64,000 nucleotides of DNA from Candidatus Dojkabacteria bacterium (lineage in GTDB: Bacteria > Patescibacteriota > Dojkabacteria > SC72). The notes beneath the pieces were generated by a model that was not told the DNA's origin, ran no database searches, and saw only the letters and a program-made list of their open reading frames with translations. The stretch lies in contig DATERJ010000012.1 of NCBI GenBank assembly GCA_035271645.1, positions 28,964-92,963 of the forward strand. Direction: 5' to 3'. The position numbers and the translations under genes are program-made. Below are positions 4,510 to 44,556 of this stretch, piece by piece (the first letter of the stretch is position 1; each line of letters starts with the position of its first letter).

Positions 4510-5769
4510 TTATATAATTTGTTCTAAAATCTCATCATCAGAATAATATTTAGATGAAGTATAGGTTCTTAATTTGTTTGAATTTGTAATAACTGGCATT
4601 TTTGCACATAGTGGATTATTCATATACATTAAAGGACATATATAGCTTGTAACTACACCCATCTCTTTTAACTTCTTAGCATTCTCTGTATTCTCAAATT
4701 CTTTCAAAACAGCTGGAGCAGAAGTAAAGACAGTTTTAATTCTAATCTTTTTCTTTCCTTTTGCTTTTAGAGCTTCTTCTAACTTCTCTGTCCAGTCATT
4801 AAGTTGTTTTAGACTCATATGTGGACAGCCCATGAAGCATAGTTTTGGTTTAGCATCAGGATTTTTCCAAATGCATGGATAGCTTTTCTTTACCCTTTCT
4901 AATTCAGCATCATCTACTATGTAGACTTTAGCGTTTTCATTAATCAAGTTTTCTTTTAATTCAACTGCTTCTGGGGTTAGATTTTCAACATGGTATAGTC
5001 CAACTGAGCCATTAGATGCCGTAGCTGCACCGAAGTCTTTTAAGTATGATAATGTGTCTTCATCTAAAGTGGTTCCTAACCATTTATCTAAACCTTTAAT
5101 ATATGGAACATCTTCTAAAACTTTCATCCCTATCGCAGAACCTAGTAGTTGTGCTTCTGGTTTCTTTGTTGTCTTTACTTCAACAATCCAGTTAGCTTTT
5201 CTTCCTTCATCAGTAAGAAGACCAAAGTAAGGGACATAGCCAACGATTGATCCAAACATTTCAATAATGCCAGAGTTACGATTGCATCTTGCTCCCAATA
5301 CAGAGTTTGCATAGTTTACAGCACTTGATTCTGCCCAAGAGAGAATGTCTCCTTTTTCGGGTATGTTACCTACTTCTGGAAGATATGCTGCACAGGTAAA
5401 AGCATCGTCTGAGAGAAGTCCTATCTTTTTAAGTTGATCTTCATATCGCTTTTGTGGTCCATACATGATTTTGAAAACAAGGTCTTGGAGGATATTCTTA
5501 GGTACATTTGGATCTAGTGGTCTAGGGTCTGCTGAGAATTTTTGTTTTGACTCAACTTCTGCATCAAGAAGTACATCCATTAAGTCAAAGACTCCTTTTA
5601 CAACTATGACTCCAAAACTAGTTACAATATGTCCGTATTTGCTAGTAACAGGAACCATTTTAGTAGCACCAAAGGTTTCTCCGTACATGACTAATGTCTT
5701 CATTATCTTAGCCATTACTTCACCTTGCTGACCATCTAAAATTGCTTGTTGTTCTTTTGTTAATTCCAT
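4510..5769 (-). CDS. aconitase X (AcnX) large/catalytic subunit-like protein (DUF521 family hydro-lyase)
   Basis: 419 aa. N-terminus MELTKEQQAILDGQQGEVMAKIMKTLVMYGE matches the DUF521 start pattern. Several conserved Cys/Ser positions. Paired with the small-subunit gene. Confidence 0.65.
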   Translation of the reverse strand: MELTKEQQAILDGQQGEVMAKIMKTLVMYGETFGATKMVPVTSKYGHIVTSFGVIVVKGVFDLMDVLLDAEVESKQKFSADPRPLDPNVPKNILQDLVFKIMYGPQKRYEDQLKKIGLLSDDAFTCAAYLPEVGNIPEKGDILSWAESSAVNYANSVLGARCNRNSGIIEMFGSIVGYVPYFGLLTDEGRKANWIVEVKTTKKPEAQLLGSAIGMKVLEDVPYIKGLDKWLGTTLDEDTLSYLKDFGAATASNGSVGLYHVENLTPEAVELKENLINENAKVYIVDDAELERVKKSYPCIWKNPDAKPKLCFMGCPHMSLKQLNDWTEKLEEALKAKGKKKIRIKTVFTSAPAVLKEFENTENAKKLKEMGVVTSYICPLMYMNNPLCAKMPVITNSNKLRTYTSSKYYSDDEILEQII

Positions 5770-5781
5770 ATATTTGTTTTA

Positions 5782-7842
5782 CTAAATTTTCATTCCAACA
5801 TCCCACGCTCTCCATGTGACTGTTCTTAAGTTACCAACCTCATTGCAATCACCTACGAGATGGACTTTTCGATTTGTTTCAGGGATTGTTTTTGGATTGT
5901 AGCCTACTGACATAATGACAGTATCTGCTTCTATGAATATTTCTTCTCCATCTTTGTTCATTATCTTAACTCCATCCTTTGTAATCTCTTGAACAGCAGA
6001 TTCTAAGTGAACCTCAACATTATTTAGTGCAAAGAACTCTCTGAGATATGAACTGTTTGCTAAACAAACTCCTCTTACAGCTATTAAATCATTCCTTGCT
6101 TCAACGATAATAGGTATTTTTCCTTTTTGGTATAGGTCTAATGCAATCTCACAACCGGTTAAACCTCCACCAATGATTATAACTTTTTCACCAGCTTTGG
6201 AGTTGTCTTTCAAATAGTCACATGCTTCAATTGTATTCTCAATTCCTTTTATCTTTAATCTCTTTGGTGTTGCCCCTATTGCAACAATTACTTCATCTGC
6301 ATCTATTTCATCAATATTAGTCACTTCCGTATTAAACTTAATTTCAATTTGTAAATCTTGCATCTCTTTTTCGTACCAATCAAGCAAGGCTCTCTCTTTA
6401 TCTTTAAAACCAGGTGTTGAAGCATATTTAAATACTCCTCCTACCCTATCACTTTTTTCATAAATTGTTGCCTTGTGTCCTCGTAGTGTTAAGAGTCTTG
6501 CAACTTCCATTCCCCCTATTCCTGCACCAATAACTGCAATGTGTTTAGGATTATTTGTTTTTACAATCTTGTATTTCTTAGATTGCATAGTAGTTGGGTT
6601 TAGTGCACATCTAGCCATACCTGCATTATCTGAAAGTGCTTGGTCATTCCCTACTCCTTTGTAGTGAGCCATATTAAAACATGCATTATGACAACCAATA
6701 CATGGCTTTATACTTTCCTCATCACCATTCATGAGTTTAGTAATCCACTCTGGATCAGTGAGGAATTGTCTAGCAACTCCCATTGCATCAATTCTGCCCT
6801 CTTTTATCGATCCTGCTCCTGCTGATGGTGTCATTCTACCTGCACAAACTACTGGAATATCTACATACTTCCTAATCTCTTCAACATCTTTAAGGTTACA
6901 GTTGTAAGGCATATACCCTGGAGGATGAGCCCAGTACCAAGCATCATATGTTCCATTGTCACAATTTAACATGTCATATCCTGCATCTTGTAGATATTTT
7001 GCAGCACGTTTTGATTCCTCCATATCTCTTCCTACTTCAGTATATTCTTCACCTGGGAGTGCTCCTTGTCCGAATCCTTTTGTCTTAGAAACGACCGAAT
7101 ATCTGAGTGATACTGGAAAATCTTTTCCACACTCTTTTTTAATTGCTTGCACTATTTCAATAGGAAATCTATATCTATTCTCAAATGAACCTCCATACTT
7201 ATCATCTCTAAAGTTTGTATATTTCATTGTAAATTGATCAAGAAGATAGCCTTCATGAACAGCATGAATTTCAATACCGTCTACTCCTGCCTCTTGGCAA
7301 AGTTTAGCTGTTTTAGCAAAACCTTCAATTATCTCCTGTATTTCTTCAACTGTCATAGGTCTAGACATTACAGAATCATCCCAACGATTTGGTGTTGCAC
7401 TTGCACTAGCTGTTAGGTAGTCAACATCTAGAACTGGTTTGAGAAGTGTTCCTAAGAATTTGTTGTGATGAGCTTCAATCATTAGGTGGTTAATTGCTAG
7501 ACTTCTTCCAAAACCTGCTGTTAATTGGATGAATAGTTTAGAACCTGTTTTGTGGAATTCATCCATGAACTCTTTAAGTTCTCGGAATTTGCCTTTACCT
7601 TGGTAGAGCCATTTTCCCCAAAGGATATCACGAATTGGAGCAATACCAGGGAGTATTAGTCCTACATTATTCCTTGCTCTTTCTAAAATGAAATTGGCTG
7701 CCTCTTTGTCAAAATGATTACCCAATGGTTCCATCCATCCAAAGAGTGATGTACCACCCATAGATGTCATAACAATCCTGTTTTTGATTTCAAGATTACC
7801 AATCTTCCATGGGGTGAATAGTGGTTTGTACTCTTGTTTCAT
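5782..7842 (-). CDS. Old Yellow Enzyme-family NAD(P)H:flavin oxidoreductase with 4Fe-4S motif and C-terminal FAD/NAD(P)-binding domain (2-enoate reductase / 2,4-dienoyl-CoA reductase-like)
   Basis: 686 aa. N-terminal OYE TIM-barrel features (IKNRIVMTSMG, HAVHEGYLLDQF). Cys cluster CIGCHNACFNMAHY...C. Rossmann motif HIAVIGAGIGGMEVA and a second IIIGGGLTGCE. Confidence 0.8.
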   Translation of the reverse strand: MKQEYKPLFTPWKIGNLEIKNRIVMTSMGGTSLFGWMEPLGNHFDKEAANFILERARNNVGLILPGIAPIRDILWGKWLYQGKGKFRELKEFMDEFHKTGSKLFIQLTAGFGRSLAINHLMIEAHHNKFLGTLLKPVLDVDYLTASASATPNRWDDSVMSRPMTVEEIQEIIEGFAKTAKLCQEAGVDGIEIHAVHEGYLLDQFTMKYTNFRDDKYGGSFENRYRFPIEIVQAIKKECGKDFPVSLRYSVVSKTKGFGQGALPGEEYTEVGRDMEESKRAAKYLQDAGYDMLNCDNGTYDAWYWAHPPGYMPYNCNLKDVEEIRKYVDIPVVCAGRMTPSAGAGSIKEGRIDAMGVARQFLTDPEWITKLMNGDEESIKPCIGCHNACFNMAHYKGVGNDQALSDNAGMARCALNPTTMQSKKYKIVKTNNPKHIAVIGAGIGGMEVARLLTLRGHKATIYEKSDRVGGVFKYASTPGFKDKERALLDWYEKEMQDLQIEIKFNTEVTNIDEIDADEVIVAIGATPKRLKIKGIENTIEACDYLKDNSKAGEKVIIIGGGLTGCEIALDLYQKGKIPIIVEARNDLIAVRGVCLANSSYLREFFALNNVEVHLESAVQEITKDGVKIMNKDGEEIFIEADTVIMSVGYNPKTIPETNRKVHLVGDCNEVGNLRTVTWRAWDVGMKI

Positions 7843-16552: not shown

Positions 16553-17278
16553 CTACACTTTTTGATACAATTTGTCTAGCTTGGCAATGACAACAAGTCT
16601 CTTTTCTGAAGTCCATAGAGGAGTACAGGTTATTAAGGTTAATCGATAGTCATCACTCTCTTTGACAACGGATATATCATTAGCTTCTACAATCTTAGTT
16701 TCTGTAACAATGTATGTATATTCTCCTTCGGTATGTTTAACTTTAATTTCATCTCCTACCGTAACCTTATCTAAATTGTAAAAAGTGTCTTTTGCAGGTG
16801 GAAGATTCATGAATCTGTGCCCAATTACAACAAAATTACCTTTATGCCCTGGGTATGTAGAGCTTGGGAAATGCCAGAATCCCCTATCCATTGTGTATGC
16901 ATCTGTACCCTGAAAAACATTTCCTTCAATCAGAACATTTGGGATTGAGATTGAAGTATTGAGTTCTTCTAAAATCTTCTTGTCGAGAATGATGTTAGCT
17001 CCTTTGATAGATTCTTCTATCGAACCTTCAACAAATTCTTCCTTTAGAAACTTATCTTTTGTTGGTGAGAGAGTTGTTAGTAAGTTAATTGTAGTATCTT
17101 TTGCAAGTGAGTAGATGTTTAGAGAGTTCTTTCTTAATGCAATATCGTTGTATTGTGGATATATGATGAAAAGGGATATTGGAATCAGGACCAATAGTAT
17201 TAGTAAAAGAGTTGTAAGTATCTGTATTGTTTTTTTCATTTCTTCCCCTATTCTACTAAATTTCCTAAACAGTTGCAT
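16553..17278 (-). CDS. sortase (transpeptidase); likely true start at the internal Met near 17239
   Basis: N-terminal TM, catalytic His in GNFVVIGHR, active-site TLITC, conserved Arg downstream. GGGGAAG SD precedes the internal ATG at about 17239. Confidence 0.8.
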   Translation of the reverse strand: MQLFRKFSRIGEEMKKTIQILTTLLLILLVLIPISLFIIYPQYNDIALRKNSLNIYSLAKDTTINLLTTLSPTKDKFLKEEFVEGSIEESIKGANIILDKKILEELNTSISIPNVLIEGNVFQGTDAYTMDRGFWHFPSSTYPGHKGNFVVIGHRFMNLPPAKDTFYNLDKVTVGDEIKVKHTEGEYTYIVTETKIVEANDISVVKESDDYRLTLITCTPLWTSEKRLVVIAKLDKLYQKV

Positions 17279-17338: not shown

Positions 17339-18304
17339 GTGGCTAAGAAGAAAAACAAGTCTGCCCAAACAAAAACTACCCCAAAGAAGACAGTAAAGAC
17401 TGTCAAGAATCAAAAACCTGTTGCTAAAAATAGCATGGTTTCTAAGGTTGAGATTCAAGAGAAGAGAAGCAATACTTTATCCAGAATCATAGGGACAGTC
17501 CTGATTGTATTAGGGATTGCTTTGATAGGATACGGTGTTTTCTCATATATTAAATCAGATAAGGCTCCAAAGTTAGATGAGGCACTTACTCCTCCTACTA
17601 CGGCTCAGACATCAGCAATAACGAATGCTGAGAATATTGTCGTAAAGGGAGAGGCTGAAGGTCTTGATAAGGTCATTGTATATATCGACAATGAGGAAGT
17701 TGGTAAGGCAAGGGTAAACAAGGATGGAGAGTATGAGTATGAGCATGAAGTTGCAGAAGAAGGTAAATATATTGTTGCAACAGCAGGAGTAAAAGGTTTC
17801 TTCAAGAAGTTTGTCACTCCTAAGTCTGATCCTATCGTTGTAACTGTTGATAGAACAGCACCAGAGTTAACAGATATTAAATACTCAAGTGAGGTTGGTA
17901 CAGATAATTTCGGTGTAATTGGAAATGCAGAGCCTGAGAGTACAGTTGTTGTAAAGAGAGGTACAGATGTGTATGAGACAAAAGCTGATGAAACTGGATT
18001 GTTTGCAATTAAAAACATTGCTTTAGAAGAAGGACCAAATGTATATTCTGTTGAAGTTAAAGATAGTGCAGGAAATGTAAATGCAGTTGAGGAGAAGATT
18101 GAGGTTACATACTCTAAAGAAAGCAGTGTTAATGGAAATGCAGTTGTAGATGAGAATCTACCAGTTGCTTCAGGTGAGTTAGAAGCAGCACTCTCTGTAA
18201 TTAGAGATGGAAAGATTATGTTAATCTTAGGATTGATTGCATTTGTAGCATTCCTAGCTTCATCTGGAGTTGTTATCGCAAAGAGGCATAGAATCGAAGG
18301 TTAG
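17339..18304 (+). CDS. cell-surface protein with Ig-like (Big) domains and C-terminal LPxxG-like sorting signal
   Basis: GTG start with AGGA SD. N-terminal TM, two roughly 90-aa beta-rich repeats, C-terminal LPVASG + hydrophobic stretch + KRHR tail. Divergent from the sortase gene. Confidence 0.7.
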   Translation: MAKKKNKSAQTKTTPKKTVKTVKNQKPVAKNSMVSKVEIQEKRSNTLSRIIGTVLIVLGIALIGYGVFSYIKSDKAPKLDEALTPPTTAQTSAITNAENIVVKGEAEGLDKVIVYIDNEEVGKARVNKDGEYEYEHEVAEEGKYIVATAGVKGFFKKFVTPKSDPIVVTVDRTAPELTDIKYSSEVGTDNFGVIGNAEPESTVVVKRGTDVYETKADETGLFAIKNIALEEGPNVYSVEVKDSAGNVNAVEEKIEVTYSKESSVNGNAVVDENLPVASGELEAALSVIRDGKIMLILGLIAFVAFLASSGVVIAKRHRIEG

Positions 18305-18348: not shown

Positions 18349-19452
18349 ATGCCTAAGATATATTCTGTTGAGAGTAAAAAGGAGAACTCTAGTGGGTCTG
18401 GTATGAACAAAGTCGAAGTCCATTTAGATCCGAAGTTAGTTGCTTTGATATTAGTTATCTTAGCTATGATTTTCTTTGGTAAGCAACTTCTTTCTGTGAT
18501 TCTATTTATGATGTTGGCATTTGTATTTATGTGTACGATGAGGCCAATTGTTAGATGGTTTGAGAAGAAAGGGGTATCTAAAGGTTGGGCCCTTTTTCTT
18601 TCATATGCAGGACTGGTACTTGCCTGTGTGATATTGATTGCAATTATTGTAGTTCCATTTATCAACCAAATGGATAGTCTTGTAGCAACATTACCTAAAT
18701 GGATTGGGGAGATGATAGATTGGTTGAAGGGAATAAATATTGGTGGCAAGGGACTAGATACTGCAGAGATCGAGAAGGCAGCAACTGGTTGGTTAAAAGA
18801 TTTGACAAACTTGGGTAATGTTAAGAGTGTGACATCTGCAGTAAGTGGTATGTTTAGTGGTTTTGCTACATTCTTCTCAGCAGTAGTTCTTTCAGTATAT
18901 CTTGTTGCTGAGCATGATTCTCTGTCAGATGTTCTTTTTATCAGAATTAGATCAAAAGAAAAGAAGGACAGGGTAAAGCAGTTGATTGTAGATGTTGAGG
19001 ATAAAATAGGGAATTGGGTTTTAGGACAAGGTGCAGTTAGCTTGTTCGCTACTATTTTCTCAGCAGTAATCTTGTCAATCTTTAGAGTACCTTTCGCTGT
19101 TCCTCTTGCAGTTTTAGTAGGTATCTTAGATGCTGTTCCTACTGTGGGTGCAACATTAGCTGGCATTATTGTTGGCATTATTTCTTTGATTACAATTGGT
19201 CCTATTAAAGCAATAATAATATTGGTCTTAATGATGCTCTACCAGCAGGTTGAAAACAACATCATTATTCCAAAAGTAATGAGTAATGTTTCAGGTCTTA
19301 AACCACTATACATCCTTGTAGGTGCTATCATTATGTTAATCATTGCAGGACCAATAGGGGCAATTGTTACAGTTCCCCTACTCGTTATCGCAAAGATAGC
19401 ATATGAATTCTATGTAGACTTGCAAAAACTTGAAGCTAGGGGTATCGTTTAG
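18349..19452 (+). CDS. AI-2E family transporter (UPF0118/PerM-like permease)
   Basis: 367 aa with 7-8 TM helices and the family-typical conserved loop IPKVMSNVSGLKPLYILVG. Confidence 0.75.
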   Translation: MPKIYSVESKKENSSGSGMNKVEVHLDPKLVALILVILAMIFFGKQLLSVILFMMLAFVFMCTMRPIVRWFEKKGVSKGWALFLSYAGLVLACVILIAIIVVPFINQMDSLVATLPKWIGEMIDWLKGINIGGKGLDTAEIEKAATGWLKDLTNLGNVKSVTSAVSGMFSGFATFFSAVVLSVYLVAEHDSLSDVLFIRIRSKEKKDRVKQLIVDVEDKIGNWVLGQGAVSLFATIFSAVILSIFRVPFAVPLAVLVGILDAVPTVGATLAGIIVGIISLITIGPIKAIIILVLMMLYQQVENNIIIPKVMSNVSGLKPLYILVGAIIMLIIAGPIGAIVTVPLLVIAKIAYEFYVDLQKLEARGIV

Positions 19453-19487: not shown

Positions 19488-22031
19488 ATGGAGAGTGAGA
19501 GTAAGAAAACAACACCAGTATACTTTTTTGATGACTATTCAGCCAAAGAATTAAATGAAAACAAGGTTGGACGAAAAGGTCTAAGTCTTTTCAAACTTAA
19601 GGATATGGATGTACCTGTTCCAGAGTTTTTTGTGATTTCTACTGATACTTTCGTAGATTTCATGGTAAAGGCTTTTAAGGATGGGAAGGATAGGATTTTA
19701 GCGAAGGGAAGAAATCCAGAGAACAAAGAGGTTGAGGATATGCTTCTAAAAACAGAGTTCCCAAAGGAAGTATTAGATGAAATACTCTCGGCATATACAA
19801 GACTCTCTGGCTTTACTGATGCGTGGGTTTCTGTAAGGTCGTCTGTTTGTTTTACAGCAGATAAGGATGTTTCTTTTAGTGGTATATTTTCTACAGAATT
19901 GAATGTTAGAAAATATGATGAATTAGTCCAGTCGATTAAGAGAATATATGCATCGATGTTTAGCGATGATGTTGTAGCATATGCAGGTAGGATGAATATT
20001 GATTTGGCAGATGCAAAGATTGCTGTGGTAGTACAGAAGATGGTTCAGTCAGAAGTTGCAGGTGTGGTATATACTACCGACCCTGTCACTCAGGATAAAA
20101 CAAAGCTTAGTATTGAAGCAGTATATGGTCTGGGAGATGTAATCTCTCTTGGTGAGATAACTCCAGATACATATGTGCTTAACAAAAAAGACCTTTCTAC
20201 TGCAGAGATGTATATATCTCCACAAGAATGGATGAAAGTAAGGACTATGAGGAGAACAGGAAAAGGTACAGTAGGTGTTGAGAAGATAAAGATTTCAAAA
20301 AATTGGAGTCACAAACAGAAACTTCCTGATAGGGATATTCAAGAGATTGCGAAGATATCATTGGTGATAGAAGACAGGGGGAATGAAGCACAGAATATTG
20401 AATGGGTATTATCTGGTGGTCGATTCTGGGTGTTACAGAATAAACCAATTAGATATATCTCACTATCCGATGGGATACTAAAAGAAGGTGTGTATATTGT
20501 AAGGAAGAATGTTAGAGAGGTAATCTTAGGATTCATAGAGAAATACAAGAGTAAGGATGAGATGGTTACCTCTGCAATGACAGAAGCAAAGAAGATTGTT
20601 GAAAAGAACAATGATGAGGAGATAAAGAGACTTGAGAAATTGATAGTAGAGGCAAAGAAAGAGCTTGATAGTAAAGTTGCAGTTCCTGAGGTTAAACAAG
20701 ATGACTTCGTTATCTCAGGTATAGGTGCAAGTTTTGGAAAGGCAACTGGAAAGGTAAGGATTGTGTCTGGAGCTACAGATAAGAAATATACTAAAGATGA
20801 TATTCTTTTGATTAAGAAATATTCTTCAGAGATGGAATCTATGATTCTTTCTTCTGGAGGTATCATTATGGAAACAGGCGGTCTTACAAGTGATACAGCA
20901 ATTCTTTGTAGAGAGTTTAATATCCCAGCAGTAGTAGGTGCTACTGGAGCATCTACTCTGTTGAAAGAAGGTGACAGGGTTAGAATTGATGGTAATGCAG
21001 GGACAATATACAAGAGTGAGAAGTTAGCAACTGAGGAAACAGAGGTACATCCAGTTGTTGATGCATATACAAAGGGAGACCTTACTGGAATGGAGAGTAT
21101 TGAACCTGCTAAGGTAGAAGAAGTTAAAGAAGAGCTTCCACCTAAAGACTTCACCCTACCCCCTTCAGCTACAAGGGTCTTTTCAATGGTTACAGACAGT
21201 AGCAAAAAGATGTTTGAGTTTGTTGGTGATTCTCATGGATTGGTATATATTGATTTAGATAAAATAATGCTTGAAGATGGAAGACATCCACTTCAGTATG
21301 TGGAAGACAAAAAGTTTGTTGATTACACAAAGAAAATTTGTGAGAAAGTTTTGGAATATATTAAACTTGTACAAGGTGATGAAGTAGTTCTAACAATTGG
21401 TTCTAGTAAAGTGAGAGAGTTTAGGTCATTAGTTGGTGGTAAGAAGCAGGAGAATGCATCGGTTTCAGCAGAAGCATTTGGTGCCCAGCACTACATCAAC
21501 AATCCAGAGCTCCTTATCAGAGTTGCAAGGATAGTAAGGAGAATTAGGAATGTACACAAGAAGAGGAATGTTTCCTTAGGGATTCATGCAGTTATGAACG
21601 GTGACTTTATGGTCGAAATCAAAAAACAACTCTCTGGTGAGAACTTAAAGAGAACATCATCATTTAAACTCTATGCAGTACTTGATAACCCATCCGAAAT
21701 TATACTAGCCGATGAAATTGCTAATGCTAGAATAGATGGCATTATCCTCAATATGCCTAGGATTGCTATGCAGATGCAAGGATTTAAGATTGAAGATACT
21801 GATGCACATTACGATTTAGCAAGGCATAGTGTTTTCAAAGTTGTGGATAATCTTCTTGCTGAAGTGAAAGGAAAGCTAAGTCAGGTAATTGTTGTTGCTG
21901 AGGATAGTAAACCACTTCTTAGATATTGTGTAAGAGCTGGAGTGTATGGTGTTGCTGTTCTTCCTGAGGATATCAAAGATGCACGAAAAGCAGCTGCTGA
22001 TGAGGAAGGAAAGATAATCTTAGGAAAATAG
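19488..22031 (+). CDS. phosphoenolpyruvate synthase / pyruvate phosphate dikinase-family protein with non-canonical phospho-carrier motif (His->Asp)
   Basis: 847 aa. N-terminal PPDK_N-like ATP-grasp (VGRKGLSL). Central PEP-utilizer swivel motif GGLTSDTAILCREFNIPAVVG (canonical GG.T.HAAI.AREL.IPAVVG). The residue corresponding to the phospho-His is Asp (codon 20892-20894). Diverged C-terminal domain (IILNMPRI in place of GTNDL). Confidence 0.75.
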   Translation: MESESKKTTPVYFFDDYSAKELNENKVGRKGLSLFKLKDMDVPVPEFFVISTDTFVDFMVKAFKDGKDRILAKGRNPENKEVEDMLLKTEFPKEVLDEILSAYTRLSGFTDAWVSVRSSVCFTADKDVSFSGIFSTELNVRKYDELVQSIKRIYASMFSDDVVAYAGRMNIDLADAKIAVVVQKMVQSEVAGVVYTTDPVTQDKTKLSIEAVYGLGDVISLGEITPDTYVLNKKDLSTAEMYISPQEWMKVRTMRRTGKGTVGVEKIKISKNWSHKQKLPDRDIQEIAKISLVIEDRGNEAQNIEWVLSGGRFWVLQNKPIRYISLSDGILKEGVYIVRKNVREVILGFIEKYKSKDEMVTSAMTEAKKIVEKNNDEEIKRLEKLIVEAKKELDSKVAVPEVKQDDFVISGIGASFGKATGKVRIVSGATDKKYTKDDILLIKKYSSEMESMILSSGGIIMETGGLTSDTAILCREFNIPAVVGATGASTLLKEGDRVRIDGNAGTIYKSEKLATEETEVHPVVDAYTKGDLTGMESIEPAKVEEVKEELPPKDFTLPPSATRVFSMVTDSSKKMFEFVGDSHGLVYIDLDKIMLEDGRHPLQYVEDKKFVDYTKKICEKVLEYIKLVQGDEVVLTIGSSKVREFRSLVGGKKQENASVSAEAFGAQHYINNPELLIRVARIVRRIRNVHKKRNVSLGIHAVMNGDFMVEIKKQLSGENLKRTSSFKLYAVLDNPSEIILADEIANARIDGIILNMPRIAMQMQGFKIEDTDAHYDLARHSVFKVVDNLLAEVKGKLSQVIVVAEDSKPLLRYCVRAGVYGVAVLPEDIKDARKAAADEEGKIILGK

Positions 22032-22071: not shown

Positions 22072-24675
22072 ATGGATAGTACTCCGATGATGAGACAATA
22101 TTGGGGTTTTAAGAGACAATACCCTGATAAAATACTGCTTTACAGAATGGGTGATTTCTTTGAGACCTTTGGTGATGATGCAAAGATTACATCTAAAGTT
22201 TTAAATATTACTCTTACTAAAAGAAACAAAGAGAAAGATGCAATTGCTCTTGCGGGTTTTCCACATAAAGCGTTGGATCAATACCTTCCGAAACTGATAG
22301 AGTCAGGATACTCTGTTGTAATTGTAGACCAACTTGAGGATCCAAAGTTGGCTAAAGGAATTGTAAAAAGAGGAGTAACTCGAATTGTTACACCCGGTAC
22401 TGTTGATGGAGAACAAGCAAGTGCAATTAAAGATTCATATCTAGCTGCATTCTTTTTTGAAGGGAAAAATAGATATTGTTCCTTGGTTGATCTGTCTACT
22501 GGGAAGTTTTTAACACTCTCCCCTAGCCCATCTAAGGGATATGTAAACAATATTCTTTCTGCGTATGAACCTGTTGAAATTCTTCTTCTTGAAGGTGAAC
22601 AGAGTGAGGAGTTAGGAAATTCTCTTGTACATTTTGTAGAGAAAGGTTTGAGGAATTTGAAATATTCACAAGAGGTTGTTCAGGATTTTTACAATGTAAA
22701 AAGTATTAATTCTTTAGGAATAGAAGATGATTCTGCTGAAGTAGTTCCAGTAGCTATGTTAATTAAATATATTGAGGAAACACAGTTAATGAACCCTCAG
22801 CATATTCTGAAGCCTCAGAAGATTTCATTAAACAGTACCATGGTTTTAGATAGGGCTACAATTCGAAACTTAGAGATAATTAACAATTCATATACGGGTG
22901 GTATAGAGAATTCGCTTTTCTCTGTCTTGAACAAAACATGTACAAGAATGGGTACTAGATTACTCTACTCTTGGCTTCTTAATCCATTGATTGTTAAAAA
23001 GGAAATAGACCATAGATTAAATGTTACAGATAAATTTTTTCAAAATGAGAGTGTTTTAAGAGATGTAAGAGAGAAATTAGAAGGAATTAATGACATTGAG
23101 AGGGTTGTAGGTAAGATTGGGCTTAACAGAGTAACACCTAGGGATATAAAGGGACTGCAAGGATCGTTAATAAATTCTGATGAAATCCTTGAGATTCTCA
23201 AGAAAGATTTGAATATTAAATATGAAAAGTTAGATAGAAAATTCTTCACCAAGTTAGCAGAGAAGATAGAGGAAACGATTGCTGATGACCCTCCGATAAC
23301 AATTATGGAAGGAGGGATAATTAAAACAGGATTTAACAAAGAGGTAGATGAGTTAAGAACACTCTCTGGAGATAGTAAAGATTGGTTGAAAGAATTAGAA
23401 GAGAAAGAAAGAAAGGAAACAGGTATTCCTTCATTGAAAATAGGATTTAATAATGTGTTTGGATATTACATAGATGTTACAAAAGCACATCAGGAGAAAG
23501 TACCAGATAGGTATATTCGTAAACAGACATTAGTTAATTCAGAGAGATATATAACAGAAGAACTAAAGGAGAAAGAAGAGATAATCTTAAATGCTCGTGA
23601 TAATCTTAGTGCACTTGAGTATCAATTGTTTAATGAATTTAGAGAATCGCTCCTACCTAATCTTGGAAAACTTCAAGAGTTATCTAAGGTAATAGCCGAG
23701 ATAGATGTTCTTTCCAACTTTGCACATGTTGCAATTGAAAACTCATATTGCAAACCAGATATCTTTGAGATTGGTGAGAATGATGGATTGATTGAAATAG
23801 AGAAAGGTAGGCATCCGATAATTGAATCAATAGCTGATGAGGAATTCATATCAAATGATACTAAGATGTCTTTTAAAGAAGGTTGTATGTCTATTCTCAC
23901 AGGTCCTAATATGGCTGGTAAGTCAACATATATTCGTCAGGTTGCTACAATTGTTCTCATGGCACAGATTGGGTCTTTTGTTTCAGCAGAGAGTGCAAGT
24001 ATATCCTTGGTTGATCGAATATTTACAAGGGTTGGAGCATCAGATGATTTAGCAAGAGGAAGAAGTACTTTCATGGTAGAGATGGATGAGGCTGCTAATA
24101 TTGTAAACAATGCGACTAAGTATAGTTTGATAGTTCTTGATGAGGTTGGAAGAGGAACAAGTACATATGATGGTGTCAGTATTGCTTGGTCTTTAGCAGA
24201 ATATATTCTTAAAGAAGTTAAAGCTAGGACAATGTTTGCAACTCACTATCATGAACTTCTCAAACTTTCTGAAAAATATCCAGATAGTGTAAGGAATTAC
24301 AATGTTCTTGTTGAAGAAGATTTGGAGAAAGGAGTTGTAATTTTCCTAAGAAAGATTGTACAGGGTGGTACAGATAGAAGCTATGGAATCTATGTTGCTA
24401 AGATGGCAGGACTTCCCGAGAAGGTTGTAAAGAGAGCAAATGAGATACTAGAGAGCTTTGAGCAGAAGAATATGTTTACTGGAAAGTCTAGTGTAAGGGA
24501 GATTTCTTTTACAGCAAAGAGCAAGCAGGAGAAAGCTCGTTTAACTGCAATGCAGTATCCTCTCTTCTCTGCAAAGGATTCTGAAATTGAGAAAGAAATT
24601 CAAGGTATCGATACTGATAATCTTACTCCTCTTGAGGCACTTAAAAAGATTGTTGAGTGGAAAAAGAAAGTCTAG
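22072..24675 (+). CDS. mutS: DNA mismatch repair protein MutS
   Basis: 867 aa. N-terminal MMRQYWGFKRQYPD...GDFFE mismatch-binding domain. Walker A GPNMAGKSTYIRQVA. DEVGRGTSTYDG. C-terminal HTH region. Confidence 0.9.
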   Translation: MDSTPMMRQYWGFKRQYPDKILLYRMGDFFETFGDDAKITSKVLNITLTKRNKEKDAIALAGFPHKALDQYLPKLIESGYSVVIVDQLEDPKLAKGIVKRGVTRIVTPGTVDGEQASAIKDSYLAAFFFEGKNRYCSLVDLSTGKFLTLSPSPSKGYVNNILSAYEPVEILLLEGEQSEELGNSLVHFVEKGLRNLKYSQEVVQDFYNVKSINSLGIEDDSAEVVPVAMLIKYIEETQLMNPQHILKPQKISLNSTMVLDRATIRNLEIINNSYTGGIENSLFSVLNKTCTRMGTRLLYSWLLNPLIVKKEIDHRLNVTDKFFQNESVLRDVREKLEGINDIERVVGKIGLNRVTPRDIKGLQGSLINSDEILEILKKDLNIKYEKLDRKFFTKLAEKIEETIADDPPITIMEGGIIKTGFNKEVDELRTLSGDSKDWLKELEEKERKETGIPSLKIGFNNVFGYYIDVTKAHQEKVPDRYIRKQTLVNSERYITEELKEKEEIILNARDNLSALEYQLFNEFRESLLPNLGKLQELSKVIAEIDVLSNFAHVAIENSYCKPDIFEIGENDGLIEIEKGRHPIIESIADEEFISNDTKMSFKEGCMSILTGPNMAGKSTYIRQVATIVLMAQIGSFVSAESASISLVDRIFTRVGASDDLARGRSTFMVEMDEAANIVNNATKYSLIVLDEVGRGTSTYDGVSIAWSLAEYILKEVKARTMFATHYHELLKLSEKYPDSVRNYNVLVEEDLEKGVVIFLRKIVQGGTDRSYGIYVAKMAGLPEKVVKRANEILESFEQKNMFTGKSSVREISFTAKSKQEKARLTAMQYPLFSAKDSEIEKEIQGIDTDNLTPLEALKKIVEWKKKV

Positions 24676-25266
24676 CTAGACTGAGATGTAGTACCCGTGG
24701 TTGTATCTATTTCCAATGATTTTAATTCCAGTACCCTTCTTGGTTTTCTTGTTAATTCTAGAGATTGTACTTTTTGTTGAAGGATTCTCAATCTTACAAT
24801 ATGGTGATTCTCTCCTAATGATGTCTTCAAATGTTTTTAATTCTTGGCTTGTGAGAAGGACTTTGCAATTGTTGTATATTATTGCAGATTTATCTCTACA
24901 TATTGTAATTCCTTTGTACTTGTACTCCTTGCTTGTTACTTCAAGGTGACCTAGGTACTTTTTAATTAGACAGAAAAGCCAAAACTTAAATTCAGGTAGT
25001 GTGAGTATATGGTCTACTCCTTCGGCAGAAAGCTTCTCTATCTCTTGTCTGGATATTTTGTTGATAATGCAAATAATTTTACAATTCCATTTTACATCTG
25101 TAGGTATCTCTCTTCCATCGCGTTTGTCAATGATAATCAAATCTGCAGATCTGGAATCATTGTTGTTTACAGAAATCTCTGTTGAACTAAAAGTTCTTCT
25201 TAGTTCGTTAATTAGGTCTCTGTCCTTGCTTTTAATTAGTAATTTTTTTGAATATCTATCTGTCAT
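24676..25266 (-). CDS. winged-helix (OmpR/PhoB-type) DNA-binding protein with short receiver-like N-domain
   Basis: 196 aa. C-terminal YKYKGITICRDKSAIIYNNCKVLLTSQELKTFEDIIRR resembles trans_reg_C. N-terminal DLIIIDK resembles a receiver phospho-acceptor strand but the domain is shorter than a full REC. Confidence 0.5.
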   Translation of the reverse strand: MTDRYSKKLLIKSKDRDLINELRRTFSSTEISVNNNDSRSADLIIIDKRDGREIPTDVKWNCKIICIINKISRQEIEKLSAEGVDHILTLPEFKFWLFCLIKKYLGHLEVTSKEYKYKGITICRDKSAIIYNNCKVLLTSQELKTFEDIIRRESPYCKIENPSTKSTISRINKKTKKGTGIKIIGNRYNHGYYISV

Positions 25267-40106: not shown

Positions 40107-40865
40107 TTACTTCTTCTTTGGTGAGATATATGCCATGTATTCGCTGATGACTTTATTGGGTTCACCAATGTCTTTGACTTCTCCACCCTCTAACCACAGA
40201 ACTTCATCACACACTTCTTTTAGTTGTCCCATATTGTGAGAAACGATTATAACTGTTTTGGTTTTATCAAAGATAATTTCTTTAATCTTGTTAAAACTTT
40301 TCTCTCTAAAGGAAGTATCTCCAACCGACAGAATTTCATCTATTAGGATAATGTCAGCTTCGAAAATTGCTGTGATGGAGAAAGCTAGTTTAGAAACCAT
40401 TCCTGAAGAATATGTACTTATTGGTTTGTATATGAAGTCTCCCAGTTCAGAAAATTCAATAATTTCATCTATTTTAGATTCTATTTGACTTTTGCTAAAA
40501 CCTAGAAGGAGTCCTGATATGTAAATGTTCTCATAACCTGTAAGTCTACTTTTAAATCCTACTCCAATTGCTTGCAATGATACTGTATTATTAAACAGCT
40601 CTATTGTTCCCTCATCGGGAGAGAATATTCCTGCAATAGCTTTTAGGAGGGTAGATTTACCACTACCATTCGAACCGATGACACCAAGAATTTTACCTTC
40701 TTCTAATTCAAAGTTAACATTTTTTAAAGCTTGGAAGTAATCGGATTTAACTCCTTTGAGTTTTAATAGGTTTCTTTTTATAGAATACGGCTGAATGATA
40801 CGGTAACTGAGTGATACATTTGTTAATCTTAATGCTATGTTTTTCTTTTCTTTCTCCTTGCTCAT
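40107..40865 (-). CDS. ABC transporter ATP-binding protein, polysaccharide/teichoic-acid exporter type (TagH/Wzt-like)
   Basis: 252 aa. Walker A GSNGSGKST, signature SGMVSKLAFS, Walker B ILIDE. Confidence 0.85.
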   Translation of the reverse strand: MSKEKEKKNIALRLTNVSLSYRIIQPYSIKRNLLKLKGVKSDYFQALKNVNFELEEGKILGVIGSNGSGKSTLLKAIAGIFSPDEGTIELFNNTVSLQAIGVGFKSRLTGYENIYISGLLLGFSKSQIESKIDEIIEFSELGDFIYKPISTYSSGMVSKLAFSITAIFEADIILIDEILSVGDTSFREKSFNKIKEIIFDKTKTVIIVSHNMGQLKEVCDEVLWLEGGEVKDIGEPNKVISEYMAYISPKKK

Positions 40866-40870
40866 GATTC

Positions 40871-41653
40871 TTAAGATATCTTGGCGTAAGAGTTCTCATG
40901 CTTTTGTACTATGTGAATACCGGTAATAATGAGAACAATTGAAATAGCCAACCAAATTAAATAATATTTTATGTTTAATCCTTTTTCATATAGCATAACG
41001 TTTCTCATTTGATCTATAATGAACGCTATTGGGTTGCAAGTTAATAGTATTTTGTTAAAAGGTGCAGGAACTCTGCTTCCAATGTCATAGAAGATACCTG
41101 TTAGATAGAATACTATTTTCAAAGTAATGTTTGTTAAGTTAAATAAATCTTCAACATATACCCCAAAGTGTAGTAGAAACAGGGATATGCCAAAAGATAT
41201 TAGGTATAATAGAAGTAATAAAGGTAAGAACCATAATATGTTAATGGTTATAGGAACTTTTAATATGAAAAGTAAGATGAATATTAGAGTATAAGAGATT
41301 AGGCTCTTGAATAAGTAAACAAAGCTTTTTTGTAGTAACAAAATATATTTAGGAACGTAAATCTTACTAGTAATATGTTTATGGTCTCTTATCGCTTTTA
41401 CAGAACCAGATAACATTAGATTGAAGAAATTCCAGCTTGTCAATGCTATTAGTACAAAAGCTGGGAAGTAGTCTTCTGCTGATTTAAAGACAACTTTACC
41501 AATGAAGATGTAGATTAAAGTAAAAGCTAAAGGGTCGAGTATCCACCAAAACCAGTTGAGATAGGAGTTTGCAACCTCGCTTTTTAAATCAGACTTTGCT
41601 GAATAAACAGAATAGAAAAAATATTTTTTTAGATTCTCAAAGAATTTTAACAT
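40871..41653 (-). CDS. ABC-2 type transporter permease (TagG/Wzm-like)
   Basis: 260 aa with 6 TM helices. Directly upstream of the ATPase gene. Confidence 0.8.
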   Translation of the reverse strand: MLKFFENLKKYFFYSVYSAKSDLKSEVANSYLNWFWWILDPLAFTLIYIFIGKVVFKSAEDYFPAFVLIALTSWNFFNLMLSGSVKAIRDHKHITSKIYVPKYILLLQKSFVYLFKSLISYTLIFILLFILKVPITINILWFLPLLLLLYLISFGISLFLLHFGVYVEDLFNLTNITLKIVFYLTGIFYDIGSRVPAPFNKILLTCNPIAFIIDQMRNVMLYEKGLNIKYYLIWLAISIVLIITGIHIVQKHENSYAKIS

Positions 41654-42693
41654 GTCTCTTCTTCTAAATGCTTAATTGTTCTTGCAAAGCCATCCTTTAG
41701 ATCATATCTTCCTTTATATCCTAAACCTTTGATCTTTTCATTGGATAGTATTCCTAATGAGAAAGGAGCATAGGAAGCATTCTTTGTCTCCTGAACTTTT
41801 TGAACGACTTTGATTTTGTCACTAAAACTAGCAATGAGTTCTGCTAACTCTTTAATACTAATCTCATTCTCAGGATCGGAGACATTGTAAATGAGTTCTT
41901 CCTTTGGTGCAAGTAGGAGTACTTTAAACATTGCGTTGATAGCATCACCTATATAGGTATAGGTTCTCCTAGCTTCTCCTGTACTGTTCATGACTATGTC
42001 TTCATTGTTCATATAGTTTAGGAGGAAATCTGACTGAACTCGTCCATCGTGTATATTAATTCCAGGTCCGTATGTATGAGCTAGACGAACGGCTTTAACA
42101 TTTAAATCATATTGATATTGGTAACATGCTAGTAGGTTTTCTGCATTTTTTTTGCTTTCGGAGTAAGAGTTTCTAACTATTAAATGATCTAACTTTCCAT
42201 ATGGACCTTCTTCATAGAAAAATTTCTGGTCACTTGCAGCTTCTCCATAGATTTCTCTTGATGAAATGAATAGATATCCTTTACTGTTACTCTCTTTTGC
42301 AAGTTTTAATGTATTTATTGTTCCAAGAGTATTTGCTAGATTAACTCCTAATGGGTCAACCTTCATAACCTTAGGACTAGCAGGCCCAGCGGTATGTATT
42401 ACATAATCGATTTTCTCATCAATCTTTATTTCCTCTGTCACATCTTGTATCAAAAATTTAATGGTTTTATCTTCTTGTATTTCCTTAGGAAGTTTATCTT
42501 TATTTCTAACAAGCAATATAATTTTGTGGTTTTTGTTGTATAGCTTGTTTAATAAATATACCGTGTAGAGGAAATATCCTCCTATTAAGCCTGTTGCACC
42601 TGTGATAAAAAAAGTACTATCCGCTAAATCTAGAAGATTGTTGTCCTTTATTATGTTTTCAACATCTTCTTTTATAATGCTGGTGATTTTCAT
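41647..42693 (-). CDS. NAD-dependent epimerase/dehydratase (extended SDR) family protein
   Basis: 348 aa. FITGATGLIGGYF Rossmann motif. YxxxK (YSESK). Confidence 0.8.
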   Translation of the reverse strand: MKITSIIKEDVENIIKDNNLLDLADSTFFITGATGLIGGYFLYTVYLLNKLYNKNHKIILLVRNKDKLPKEIQEDKTIKFLIQDVTEEIKIDEKIDYVIHTAGPASPKVMKVDPLGVNLANTLGTINTLKLAKESNSKGYLFISSREIYGEAASDQKFFYEEGPYGKLDHLIVRNSYSESKKNAENLLACYQYQYDLNVKAVRLAHTYGPGINIHDGRVQSDFLLNYMNNEDIVMNSTGEARRTYTYIGDAINAMFKVLLLAPKEELIYNVSDPENEISIKELAELIASFSDKIKVVQKVQETKNASYAPFSLGILSNEKIKGLGYKGRYDLKDGFARTIKHLEEETC

Positions 42694-42715
42694 TTATTTA
42701 ATATGATGATTTAAA

Positions 42716-43435
42716 TTAGTTAAATACTTCCTGATAATCCTCTGCACTTAATATGCCTAACAATCTATATATATCATCTCGTGTGGTTATTTTAATGTTT
42801 CGTCTGTGACATTCAACTGTCTTTATCTTTTTACCAAAGGACTTCATAAGAGTACAATTGTCAATGATTCCTTCGTAGTTAGGGTTAACCTTTCTTACCT
42901 TTTTGTGAGCTTCAAAAACTTCTTTGAGAAAGAAGGTCTGAGGAGCTTTTGCAACAAAACATGTGTTTCTGTCTATTACATCTTTCACTCTGAGGTTCTT
43001 ATCGAGTATGACAGGAGTTTCATAGAGTTTTGAAACAGTTACCGCAGCACCATGTTTTCTACAAGTTTTGATGTTTTTGCTAATTAGTTCTTGGTCGATA
43101 AGGGGTCTGACACCATCATGGATTAAGACTACATCATCATCGTGAGCATTTTTAGAAGCTTCCCGTAGACCAATGTAAATCGAGTCCATTCCAGTTTTTC
43201 CTCCTGTGAAGACTTTTATTTTTGTAAGTTTGTTTTCTTTAATTAAATCTTTCATGTATTCCTCATAACCGGATTTTATTACTAAAAATATCTCATCTAT
43301 TTCAGGGTGGCATACAAAATTGTTAAGTGTATGGATAATTATTTGTTTACCTCTATATTTAATAAATTGCTTTGGTTTTTCGTGTTTCATTCTCTCGCCT
43401 ACTCCACCTGCAAAAATGACTGCTTTGTTTTTCAT
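42716..43435 (-). CDS. IspD/TarI-family sugar/polyol-phosphate cytidylyltransferase
   Basis: 239 aa. AGGVGERM...KQF and VLIHDGVRP motifs. Confidence 0.8.
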   Translation of the reverse strand: MKNKAVIFAGGVGERMKHEKPKQFIKYRGKQIIIHTLNNFVCHPEIDEIFLVIKSGYEEYMKDLIKENKLTKIKVFTGGKTGMDSIYIGLREASKNAHDDDVVLIHDGVRPLIDQELISKNIKTCRKHGAAVTVSKLYETPVILDKNLRVKDVIDRNTCFVAKAPQTFFLKEVFEAHKKVRKVNPNYEGIIDNCTLMKSFGKKIKTVECHRRNIKITTRDDIYRLLGILSAEDYQEVFN

Positions 43436-44556
43436 GTTATTTTCCCTTCTTTTAAAATAAATTTAACTAACTTCTCATTAGCATTATCGATGTTTACAAC
43501 ATACTTTTTCCTCTTGTTCTGATAGAAAGTTAAATCTTCCTTCTGAATCTTTGAGTTGATTCTCTTTTGTAACTCTTTTCTATCCTTAAATACGTATCCT
43601 TTATATTCTTTCTCAATATCTATTGTCAAACCTCTATCTTCTACATATTGGTTTAAATCAGGGACATACAAAAATACGACAATATCTCTAACCATTGCAT
43701 CATATATAACACAAGAGTAATCACTGATTAATTTATCTGAAACAAACAAGAAATCGAAGGTAGTGTGTTCTTGATCATAAATCACTCTATTGTTCTCCTT
43801 TGTAAGATTTTTGATTTTGATTCGATCCTTCTCATCTAGTGGGTGAAGACTCAGTATTAAATTATGTTTCGAAAAATCAACAATAGAGAGTATGTCTTTT
43901 ATATTTTCTAATACGAGATTGTTATTTTTGAATGTGGGTGCAAATGTAATGTTTTCCCTCTCTTTTAATACTGGATATTTTTGATAAAGTTCATCTTGGA
44001 TCTCCTTTTCATATTTTTTGTTGTTTAGTAAATCTACTCTAGGGAGAGAATAGATATGAACATAACTACTGTCATATCCAAATCCTTCTGCTAAATCTTT
44101 AGCGTATTCTTTGGAGGATGCTATTATATAATCATATTGTTTATGCATATTTAAGGAGTGTGCAATGTTTTCACCTCTTCCATCTTTCTTCCCAATAATT
44201 TGCTTTCCAAATTTTTTCATTGTTCCCATGGAATGCCATATCTGAAAGACTTTTAACTCTTCTTTATGTGTAAAATTACTTACAGCTAGGGAATAACCAT
44301 CAATAATTACAACTTTTGAATTGGCAATATTAAACAGGTCTTTTAGAAGTACTAAGTAGTAGGATGGGGAGTATTTTACTTTATGACAAGAAACATAAGT
44401 CTCTATTCCTTTTTCTTTAAGGCTTGCTATCAATAATTGGAAGTCTAAACCTGGAGTATTACCTTGTCTTGATAGGAAACATACCTTGTTTCTAATCTTC
44501 CTCTTTTTAAAGAAGTGATATATGAAAGAGGTAAGTTTTATAAGAATTTTAATCAC
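43432..44556 (-). CDS. CDP-glycerol/ribitol:poly(polyol phosphate) phosphotransferase (TagF/TagB/TarL family)
   Basis: 374 aa. Glyphos_transf-like pattern (IWHSMGTMKKFG, FAPTFK). Confidence 0.7.
   Translation of the reverse strand: MIKILIKLTSFIYHFFKKRKIRNKVCFLSRQGNTPGLDFQLLIASLKEKGIETYVSCHKVKYSPSYYLVLLKDLFNIANSKVVIIDGYSLAVSNFTHKEELKVFQIWHSMGTMKKFGKQIIGKKDGRGENIAHSLNMHKQYDYIIASSKEYAKDLAEGFGYDSSYVHIYSLPRVDLLNNKKYEKEIQDELYQKYPVLKERENITFAPTFKNNNLVLENIKDILSIVDFSKHNLILSLHPLDEKDRIKIKNLTKENNRVIYDQEHTTFDFLFVSDKLISDYSCVIYDAMVRDIVVFLYVPDLNQYVEDRGLTIDIEKEYKGYVFKDRKELQKRINSKIQKEDLTFYQNKRKKYVVNIDNANEKLVKFILKEGKIT

Follow-up and report, generated by a model that had tools for sequence, protein, structure and literature searches.

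Phosphoenolpyruvate (PEP) synthases, pyruvate phosphate dikinase (PPDK), rifampin phosphotransferase and Enzyme I all carry a phospho-histidine at the same position of a mobile swivel domain, and it is this phospho-histidine swivel that defines the PEP-utilising superfamily. The PEP-synthase-type ATP-grasp domain cleaves ATP at the α–β bond and yields AMP. Loss of catalytic residues is common among paralogues. Here we describe a gene from Candidatus Dojkabacteria, located in a 64 000-nucleotide stretch of contig DATERJ010000012.1 (referred to below as the window), which encodes an 847-residue PEP-synthase-like (PEPS-like) protein with an aspartate, Asp469, at the phospho-histidine position. 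The gene is complete (19488–22031, plus strand; stop codon at 22029–22031, from the open reading frame [ORF] list and translation), its reading frame is uninterrupted, and a near-identical public protein (P0001) is listed at 100% identity. We consider it well supported, from sequence comparison, that the protein is not a working PEP synthase. We tentatively favour the view that ATP binding has been retained and that ATP is turned over on the swivel loop, with Asp469 replacing His as the attacking group. A PEP-synthase-like family with this His→Asp change (an Asp-swivel family) did not turn up in full-text searches of the literature.

Asp469 occupies the position of the phospho-carrier histidine

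At the domain level the protein belongs to the PEP-utilising superfamily, matching both Pfam PPDK_N (PF01326; residues 25–322, E = 2.3e-61, 208.3 bits against a gathering cut-off of 27) and PEP-utilizers (PF00391; residues 436–505, E = 2e-18, 66.2 bits against a cut-off of 23.1) above threshold. Its domains have the order found in PEP synthases, ATP-grasp, swivel and TIM barrel, as judged from Pfam, from full-length alignment to 8a8e and 9dae, from an AlphaFold2 (AF2) model and from Foldseek matches to 2ols, 9dae and 8a8e; the top match overall is the PEP synthase 2ols (E = 2e-38). The final AF2 model was built from an 89-sequence alignment (predicted local distance difference test score, pLDDT, 83; predicted template modelling score, pTM, 0.53) and superseded an earlier model from a shallow 32-sequence alignment, which had left the ATP-grasp core at pLDDT < 50.

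The swivel domain (residues 406–510; 20703–21017, plus strand; PF00391) is modelled at a pLDDT of ∼77–88 per 10-residue block and contains the motif GGLTSDTAILCREFNIPAVVG (residues 464–484), in which residue 469 is Asp, encoded by GAT at 20892–20894 of the plus strand. In phmmer alignments Asp469 lies opposite the His of GG-x-TSH-AAI in 8a8e (ggrtshaai) and 9dae (ggmtshaai), and the swivel of rifampin phosphotransferase (5hv2) aligns across the same segment; in a MAFFT alignment it stands opposite His421 of Escherichia coli PpsA (GGRTCHAAII). The phospho-carrier His of the G-[GA]-x-[TN]-x-H swivel motif is therefore absent, its place being taken by Asp469. The sequence-only reading, an earlier annotation made from the letters of the window, had put an Asp at this position and codon, and the alignments to 8a8e, 9dae and E. 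coli PpsA bear it out. The same reading had allowed that the catalytic His might simply be offset. This is ruled out, because residues 406–510 contain no histidine; in addition, three independent alignments place Asp469 on the His.

The aspartate is shared across Dojkabacteria

Asp is present at the position of residue 469 in all of the closest database homologues (120/120; 54–100% identity). A scan of GTDB with one genome per species gave 80 loci, whose taxon labels are Candidatus Dojkabacteria, candidate division WS6, Patescibacteria group or a generic metagenome-assembled genome; from these, 74 full-length sequences with 30–84% identity to the window protein were counted, and the position is occupied by D in 71, by E in two and by N in one. 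Among 127 distinct sequences the codon is GAT in 105, GAC in 19, GAA or GAG in two and AAT in one, and the use of both Asp codons indicates that the amino acid has been preserved through synonymous change. When 1.84 billion cluster representatives were searched with HMMER, Asp was found throughout the top ∼30 clusters; shorter relatives (685–790 residues) carry it too, as GG-x-N-[SA]-D, and the first His-bearing cluster representative turned up at 29% identity. One of these short-form relatives bears an NCBI Dojkabacteria label.

A neighbour-joining (NJ) tree built on the ATP-grasp domain groups the Asp proteins into a single clade of 62 cluster representatives (56 with D, two with N, one with A and three swivel-less fragments), within which there is no His-bearing member and those with a taxon name are all Candidatus Dojkabacteria or WS6. 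The question raised by the sequence-only reading, whether the H→D orthologues form a clade, is thus answered in the affirmative. Because Asp is shared by the homologues, by the GTDB species and by one NJ clade, the H→D change was an ancient and probably single replacement that has been kept since. The gene appears to descend vertically from that of an archaeal-type PEP synthase; it is spread across Dojkabacteria (WS6) and is not decaying, and the sequence comparisons indicate that the protein is under purifying selection in all three domains. A search seeded with a canonical PEP synthase of the candidate phyla radiation named Woykebacteria, Microgenomates, ‘Patescibacteria group’ and archaea among the matches listed, and none from Dojkabacteria. 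This absence among the listed matches would fit an origin of the Asp form from the canonical enzyme within Dojkabacteria, but does not prove it.

In three GTDB species genomes (L056, L068 and L076) two ORFs take the place of the intact Asp-swivel gene; frameshifts or assembly errors are the probable cause, though true pseudogenisation is also conceivable.

The ATP site is retained, with a lysine at the Q-x-R position

The ATP-grasp nucleotide-binding domain (residues ∼20–322; 19545–20453, plus strand; Pfam PPDK_N) is modelled by AF2 at pLDDT 85–95, and its model matches the ATP domain of rifampin phosphotransferase (5hv6) with Foldseek TM scores of 0.85–0.88. Equivalents of Lys22, Arg117, Thr136 and Glu297 (RPH-Lm numbering), together with the Gln of Q-x-R, are all present in the window protein. 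K30, R117, E305 and Q317 are found in every GTDB representative (74/74), and T136 is invariant or at least 90% conserved. Mutagenesis of RPH-Lm has indicated that Lys22, Arg117 and Thr136 matter for ATP positioning and catalysis, while Glu297Ala was fully active (PMC4844700). The invariant ATP-site residues, the AF2 pLDDT and the TM score to 5hv6 all support the sequence-only reading in its view that the ATP-grasp N-domain looks intact.

The Arg of Q-x-R-P is replaced by Lys319 (codon 20442–20444, plus strand), E. coli IVQARP standing opposite LQNKPI of the query, and K is found here in 72 of the 74 GTDB representatives. When the swivel residue and the Q-x-R position were paired in 380 family members, the combinations observed were H–R in 101, D–K in 50, D–R in eight and H–K in two. 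We take the Lys319 position to be that of Arg337 in PPDK, and the PDB lists an R337A mutant of PPDK (2dik). To judge from this pairing, it looks as though the Arg→Lys319 change has adjusted the ATP site to a nucleophile that is shorter and anionic.

The barrel keeps its fold and has lost the PEP/pyruvate site

The degenerate PEP/pyruvate-type TIM barrel (residues 556–825; 21153–21962, plus strand) is recognised from structure prediction: it keeps eight β–α units in the AF2 model, at pLDDT ∼90, with Foldseek TM scores of 0.77–0.82 to the C-domains of the archaeal PEP synthases 9dae (S. marinus) and 8a8e (P. furiosus). The 847-residue protein gave no match to PF02896 (PEP-utilizers_C) at E ≤ 1; two relatives, P0116 and P0284, the latter with D in its swivel, do have a precomputed match to this family. 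The motif IILNMPRIAMQMQG (residues 752–765) aligns with canonical FGTNDLTQ or SIGSNDMTQ, so that the sequence-only reading was correct in calling the C-terminal motif diverged where GTNDL is expected.

Alignments to 8a8e, 9dae and E. coli PpsA revealed replacements throughout the site. GLxRxE has become YIDLD (Arg→D589, Glu→D591), VRLSD has become LTIGS (Arg→T636, which is S, T or A in relatives), EIP has become DNP (the Mg-ligand Glu→D733), GSND has become NMPR (Asn-Asp→P757–R758) and ICG has become VVA (the proton-donor Cys→V802). The roles of the canonical residues (two Arg, Glu, Asn-Asp and Cys) are those that we presume from PpsA, PPDK and Enzyme I. The barrel retains neither its catalytic Cys nor any of the PEP, pyruvate and Mg2+ ligands, and in the E. 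coli PpsA alignment all the phosphate-binding Arg residues of the pocket are replaced as well. The residues now present are retained to differing degrees among the 74 GTDB species: D589 in 66, D591 in 69, D733 in 64 (with E in the other 10) and R758 in 53.

The curated NCBIfam PEP-synthase equivalogs (PRK06464/TIGR01418) score well below their cut-offs, at 285.6 against 598 for NF005057 and 276.4 against 739.75 for TIGR01418. This is why NCBI gives family members only the generic name ‘PEP/pyruvate-binding domain-containing protein’; JGI names them ‘pyruvate, water dikinase’. Because the phospho-His is Asp and the PEP/pyruvate site is gone, PEP synthase function is not expected, and we advise against classing the protein as a PEP synthase, since it lacks three defining features of that enzyme, namely the His, the PEP-site residues and a score above the curated cut-off.

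The barrel is followed by a C-terminal helix with E-x-K-I-I-L (residues 826–847; 21963–22028, plus strand), which aligns with eerkLML of 8a8e and ierkIML of 9dae and is also found in canonical archaeal-type sequences. E840 of this helix is present in 73 of the 74 GTDB representatives and is invariant in 89 D- and H-type sequences. The position of the Fe-binding Met799 of P. furiosus is Ile844 in the window protein. In the P. furiosus and S. marinus PEP synthases the helix builds the core of a tetramer or 24-mer, and Met799 binds Fe (bioRxiv 10.1101/2022.08.11.503304).

Constraint is concentrated in the ATP site and the swivel loop

The proportion of columns conserved at ≥ 95% falls from 27% in the ATP-grasp domain to 18% in the swivel and 9% in the barrel, which is the least conserved folded domain, and is 0% in both linkers. 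Linker 1 (residues 323–405; 20454–20702, plus strand) is a variable, charged, helical insertion that faces mostly gaps in the E. coli PpsA alignment and is modelled as long helices at low pLDDT; linker 2 (residues 511–555; 21018–21152, plus strand) is variable, acidic and proline-rich, with pLDDT < 50 at residues 512–546. The GG-x-TS-D swivel loop is strictly retained, with only H→D changed relative to the canonical loop. The invariant barrel residues are largely those that are invariant in canonical PEP synthases as well, which suggests that they are retained for the fold. Short-form relatives keep the ATP-grasp domain and the Asp swivel, with only a partial barrel. The constrained core, as far as sequence comparison can tell, is the ATP site and the Asp-tipped swivel loop, and the barrel appears to keep mainly fold residues and the C-terminal oligomerisation helix. 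When considered as a potential pseudo-enzyme, the protein has clear catalytic losses at the swivel His and in the barrel site; nonetheless the ATP site and the swivel loop are its most constrained parts.

Is the Asp-swivel protein an ATP-using enzyme?

This pattern fits an ATP-using enzyme, the reading that we tentatively favour, because the ATP-site residues are invariant, the GG-x-TS-D loop is kept, an Arg→Lys co-substitution is present and ATP-grasp is the most conserved domain. In the proposed cycle, ATP would be bound in the intact ATP-grasp domain and attacked by the Asp469 carboxylate; this would yield a transient aspartyl-(pyro)phosphate on the swivel, while the C-terminal barrel would serve mainly as a dimer or oligomer scaffold and not as a second active site. 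In the ATP-grasp fold the ancestral chemistry is the phosphorylation of carboxylates, and the ATP-grasp RimK, LysX and graspetide ligases phosphorylate protein or peptide carboxylates. Several considerations weigh against such a cycle. Asp is ∼2–3 Å shorter than His, and we know of no Asp-based swivel carrier. Position 469 is Glu, Asn or Ala in a few members; of these, Asn and Ala are not phosphorylatable, and D/E interchange would be what a pure charge mimic tolerates. The R→K and H→D changes may share a single ancestral event, in which case their covariation is not independent evidence. We found no conserved phosphate acceptor site, so the cycle would run without visible output. Finally, the inter-domain arrangement in the AF2 model is unreliable at a pTM of 0.53, and this holds also for the global Foldseek TM scores, which were 0.35–0.36 to the PPDK structures 1kbl and 1dik, with the swivel near the ATP domain, as against 0.26 to 2r82. 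That this is the first swivelling dikinase with an aspartyl-(pyro)phosphate carrier, a PEP-synthase scaffold returned to the carboxylate chemistry of early ATP-grasp enzymes, whose ATP cycle acts not on pyruvate but on an outside partner, possibly within the mutS operon, is a doubtful further step.

The sequence-only reading had regarded the protein as a pseudo-enzyme, a regulator or scaffold, or a phosphomimetic variant, rather than a working PEP synthase. The latter part stands, given the missing His, the replaced ligands and Cys, the lack of a PF02896 match and the sub-threshold scores; the former is one of two competing readings. The other, in which ATP and the Asp carboxylate are still put to enzymatic use, had been omitted, although four observations fit it at least as well. 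A catalytically dead, ATP-binding pseudo-enzyme, in which Asp469 or Glu permanently imitates phospho-His and holds the swivel in one docking state, so that the protein acts as a nucleotide-sensing regulator or an oligomeric scaffold, is nevertheless a realistic possibility, if one to which we give less than even weight. It accounts for the loss of all second-site catalytic residues, including the Mg-ligand Asp, now Arg758, which could fill the metal site. It also accounts for the tolerance of D/E swaps and rare N or A variants, for a barrel that retains mostly fold-determining residues and the oligomerisation helix, and for the lack of an evident acceptor site. However, R758 is present in only 53, and D589 in 66, of the 74 species. 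Moreover, the strongest constraint falls on K30, R117 and T136, which position the α–β phosphodiester, and on the GG-x-TS-D loop, which a static mimic docked on the barrel would not need, and the Arg→Lys co-substitution points to an ATP site that has adapted to the new residue.

A new small-molecule or protein kinase or dikinase of the kind represented by RPH and PigC, in which phosphate would pass from ATP-grasp to a swivel Asp∼P and on to a new substrate in a remodelled barrel, seems unlikely to us. The superfamily offers a precedent, since the third domain sets substrate specificity there (RPH/PigC matches; PMC4844700), and the barrel is confidently folded in the AF2 model, with polar residues at strand ends that are fairly conserved in long forms (D591, D733, N734, N755 and E805) and a transporter gene directly upstream in those forms. 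But only 9% of the barrel columns reach 95% conservation, the invariants are mostly structural and common to canonical PEP synthases, the phosphate-binding Arg residues of the pocket are all gone, and short forms with a partial barrel still keep the Asp and the linkage to mutS; it is the weakly conserved and truncated barrel that leads us to disfavour this idea. An ordinary PEP synthase or PPDK interconverting pyruvate and PEP, as the JGI name implies, is highly improbable. The architecture and the best database matches are indeed those of PEP synthases, and Dojkabacteria are reported to run lower glycolysis from 3-phosphoglycerate (3-PGA) to pyruvate (PMC5113843); yet the swivel has no His, the PEP site has lost its two Arg, its Glu, its Asn-Asp and its Cys, PF02896 is not matched, the scores are less than half of the NCBIfam cut-offs, and it is the nearest His-bearing relative that adjoins enolase and glucose-6-phosphate isomerase (GPI) genes, whereas the Asp family adjoins mutS. 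An artefact, for which it could be said that His CAT and Asp GAT differ by a single base, has a negligible probability. The sequence-only reading had named a sequencing error as a possible source of the Asp, and we reject this, together with an assembly error or a decaying pseudogene: Asp is found in 120/120 homologues, in 71 of 74 GTDB species and in > 120 independent assemblies, both codons are used, and the ORF is intact and under purifying selection.

Genomic context

An AI-2E family transporter gene (18349–19452, plus strand; PF01594, 2e-51) ends 35 bp upstream of the PEPS-like gene, and mutS (22072–24675, plus strand; Pfam MutS_I–V) begins 40 bp downstream; neither of these two short gaps contains a terminator-like site. 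The plus strand of the neighbourhood carries genes for an Ig-domain surface protein, the AI-2E transporter, the PEPS-like protein and MutS, with an OmpR-like protein, PBP1A and PheTS further on, and the minus strand carries those for ClpP, trigger factor and sortase. Because this whole block (ClpP–Tig–sortase/surface protein–AI-2E–PEPS-like–MutS–…–PBP1–PheTS) is kept in essentially all long-form loci, the neighbourhood mostly reflects general synteny. The window shows the gene order usual in these genomes, which suggests that it stems from a Dojkabacteria-class Patescibacterium.

The AI-2E gene is found upstream in long forms only and is absent from short-form loci. mutS directly follows the PEPS-like gene in short-form loci L085, L089, L091, L097, L098, L099, L121 and L169, where the neighbours otherwise differ (RuBisCO, DUF2298, no AI-2E); L096 is an exception to this pairing among the short-form loci. 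Over 130 loci the gap between the PEPS-like gene and mutS has a median of 49 bp and a 75th percentile of 286 bp, and about a quarter of the loci carry insertions between the two. mutS is the only recurrent genomic partner, and we regard the pairing as a lead and not as evidence of function.

A phmmer search of the 64-kb window with E. coli PpsA matched only 19488–22031, so that the window holds no second PpsA-like ORF that could be a canonical pps or ppdK, and it contains no glycolytic gene. The nearest His-bearing relative (P0149, locus L092), which has a PF02896 match, adjoins enolase and glucose-6-phosphate isomerase. At L092 P0149 is followed by short ORFs with Enolase_N matches, suggesting a fragmented enolase, and then by a cupin-type GPI, and the opposite strand carries an AI-2E family transporter gene close by.

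Convergent with mutS is a 196-residue ORF (24676–25266, minus strand) without a Pfam match, which shares 24% identity (pairwise E = 8e-6) with the protein at the same position in L087, a Response_reg protein with a weak Trans_reg_C match. From this similarity it looks like a degenerate OmpR-type response regulator. An OmpR-like ORF is seen beside mutS in roughly a third of the loci, and response-regulator genes also occur near short-form loci.

Distant relatives and other features of the window

Giant distant homologues of 1100–2650 residues (P0171, P0175, P0185, P0210 and others) combine a PEPS-type ATP-grasp domain with two to six tandem His-bearing swivels. In other PEPS-like subfamilies of 800–930 residues (P0151, P0153, P0159, P0161–P0163, P0169 and P0173; loci L093 and L171–L175) the swivel loop is wholly degenerate, with neither His nor Asp; at least one such member, P0153 (L093), keeps a PEP-utilizers_C match. 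No mutS neighbour was found at the recovered degenerate-swivel loci (L093 and L171–L175). Judging from these sequences, the swivel His seems to have been lost repeatedly in PEPS-like proteins.

Within the window, the sortase gene (16553–17278, minus strand) is divergently paired with the gene for the Ig-domain (Big_13/Big_6) surface protein (17339–18304, plus strand). The C-terminus of this surface protein runs from NLPVASG through hydrophobic residues to a KRHRIEG tail and has the look of a variant LPXTG sorting signal. Nearly all Dojkabacteria loci keep the two genes beside the PEPS-like block. The gene cluster at 40107–46960 (minus strand), of a kind typical for making and exporting wall teichoic acid, comprises genes for an ABC transporter ATPase, an ABC-2 permease, an NAD-dependent epimerase/dehydratase, an IspD/TarI-like cytidylyltransferase and two CDP-glycerol glycerophosphotransferase-family proteins, one of them fused to a hexapeptide-repeat domain. 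Such a cluster is of note in a lineage reported to have incomplete envelope synthesis (PMC10031880). At 4510–7842 (minus strand) an aconitase-X (AcnX) family gene lies beside one for a 686-residue fusion of an Old-Yellow-Enzyme-type FMN oxidoreductase with a pyridine-nucleotide-disulphide oxidoreductase; this pair is unexpected metabolic content, the rest of the window being housekeeping.

Significance

The metabolism of Dojkabacteria is among the sparsest known, with only 3-PGA to pyruvate to acetate and no gluconeogenesis reported (PMC5113843). Crediting these bacteria with PEP/pyruvate interconversion on the strength of the Asp-swivel protein would be wrong, and our analysis corrects a JGI annotation that feeds metabolic models of this minimal-genome phylum. 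Across a whole bacterial class, with genomes of < 1 Mb, the swivel, the ATP site and the almost invariant Asp have all been kept. The Asp-swivel family is a natural experiment, either in a carboxylate replacing His or in an enzyme becoming a nucleotide-dependent non-enzyme. Its retention across Dojkabacteria, usually directly before mutS, provides a concrete functional lead in organisms that are as yet uncultured.

Comparison with known systems

Archaeal-type PEP synthase (EC 2.7.9.2; P. furiosus PPSA, 8a8e; S. marinus, 9dae) is the closest known system overall in sequence and structure, and with E. coli PpsA it has the same domain order and ATP-site residues as the window protein. The archaeal-type enzyme also has in common with it the swivel loop GG-x-T-S-x-x-A-I-x-x-R-E and a C-terminal helix of the form E-x-K/R-I/L-x-L. 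The window protein differs in the His→Asp change, in the Arg→Lys change at the ATP site, in the replaced barrel ligands and Cys, in Ile844 for Met799, in two long variable linkers that have been inserted, and in scoring below the family thresholds. PPDK (1kbl, 1dik and 2r82) has the same three-domain swivelling architecture (Foldseek E = 1e-31), but resembles the window protein less in sequence; relative to PPDK the catalytic His, Arg, Glu, Asn-Asp and Cys are likewise lost, and the NCBIfam PPDK models give 58–79 bits against cut-offs of 456–843.

Rifampin phosphotransferase and PigC/RedH have a similar ATP-grasp domain (the TM scores of 0.85–0.88 to 5hv6) and are a precedent for non-pyruvate substrates. 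Their phospho-carrier, however, is a His on a C-terminal swivel (His825 in RPH-Lm) and they lack a TIM barrel, whereas the window protein has a central swivel followed by a barrel; the corresponding models give 193–224 bits against cut-offs of 999–1350. The different domain order and the missing His place the window protein outside the RPH/PigC type. RimK, LysX and the graspetide ligases, and the aspartyl-phosphate proteins (response regulators, P-type ATPases and HAD proteins), are functional analogies. If Asp469 is phosphorylated, the chemistry would be the same acyl-phosphate chemistry that RimK, LysX and the graspetide ligases perform on a protein carboxylate, with no sequence relation beyond the ATP-grasp fold.

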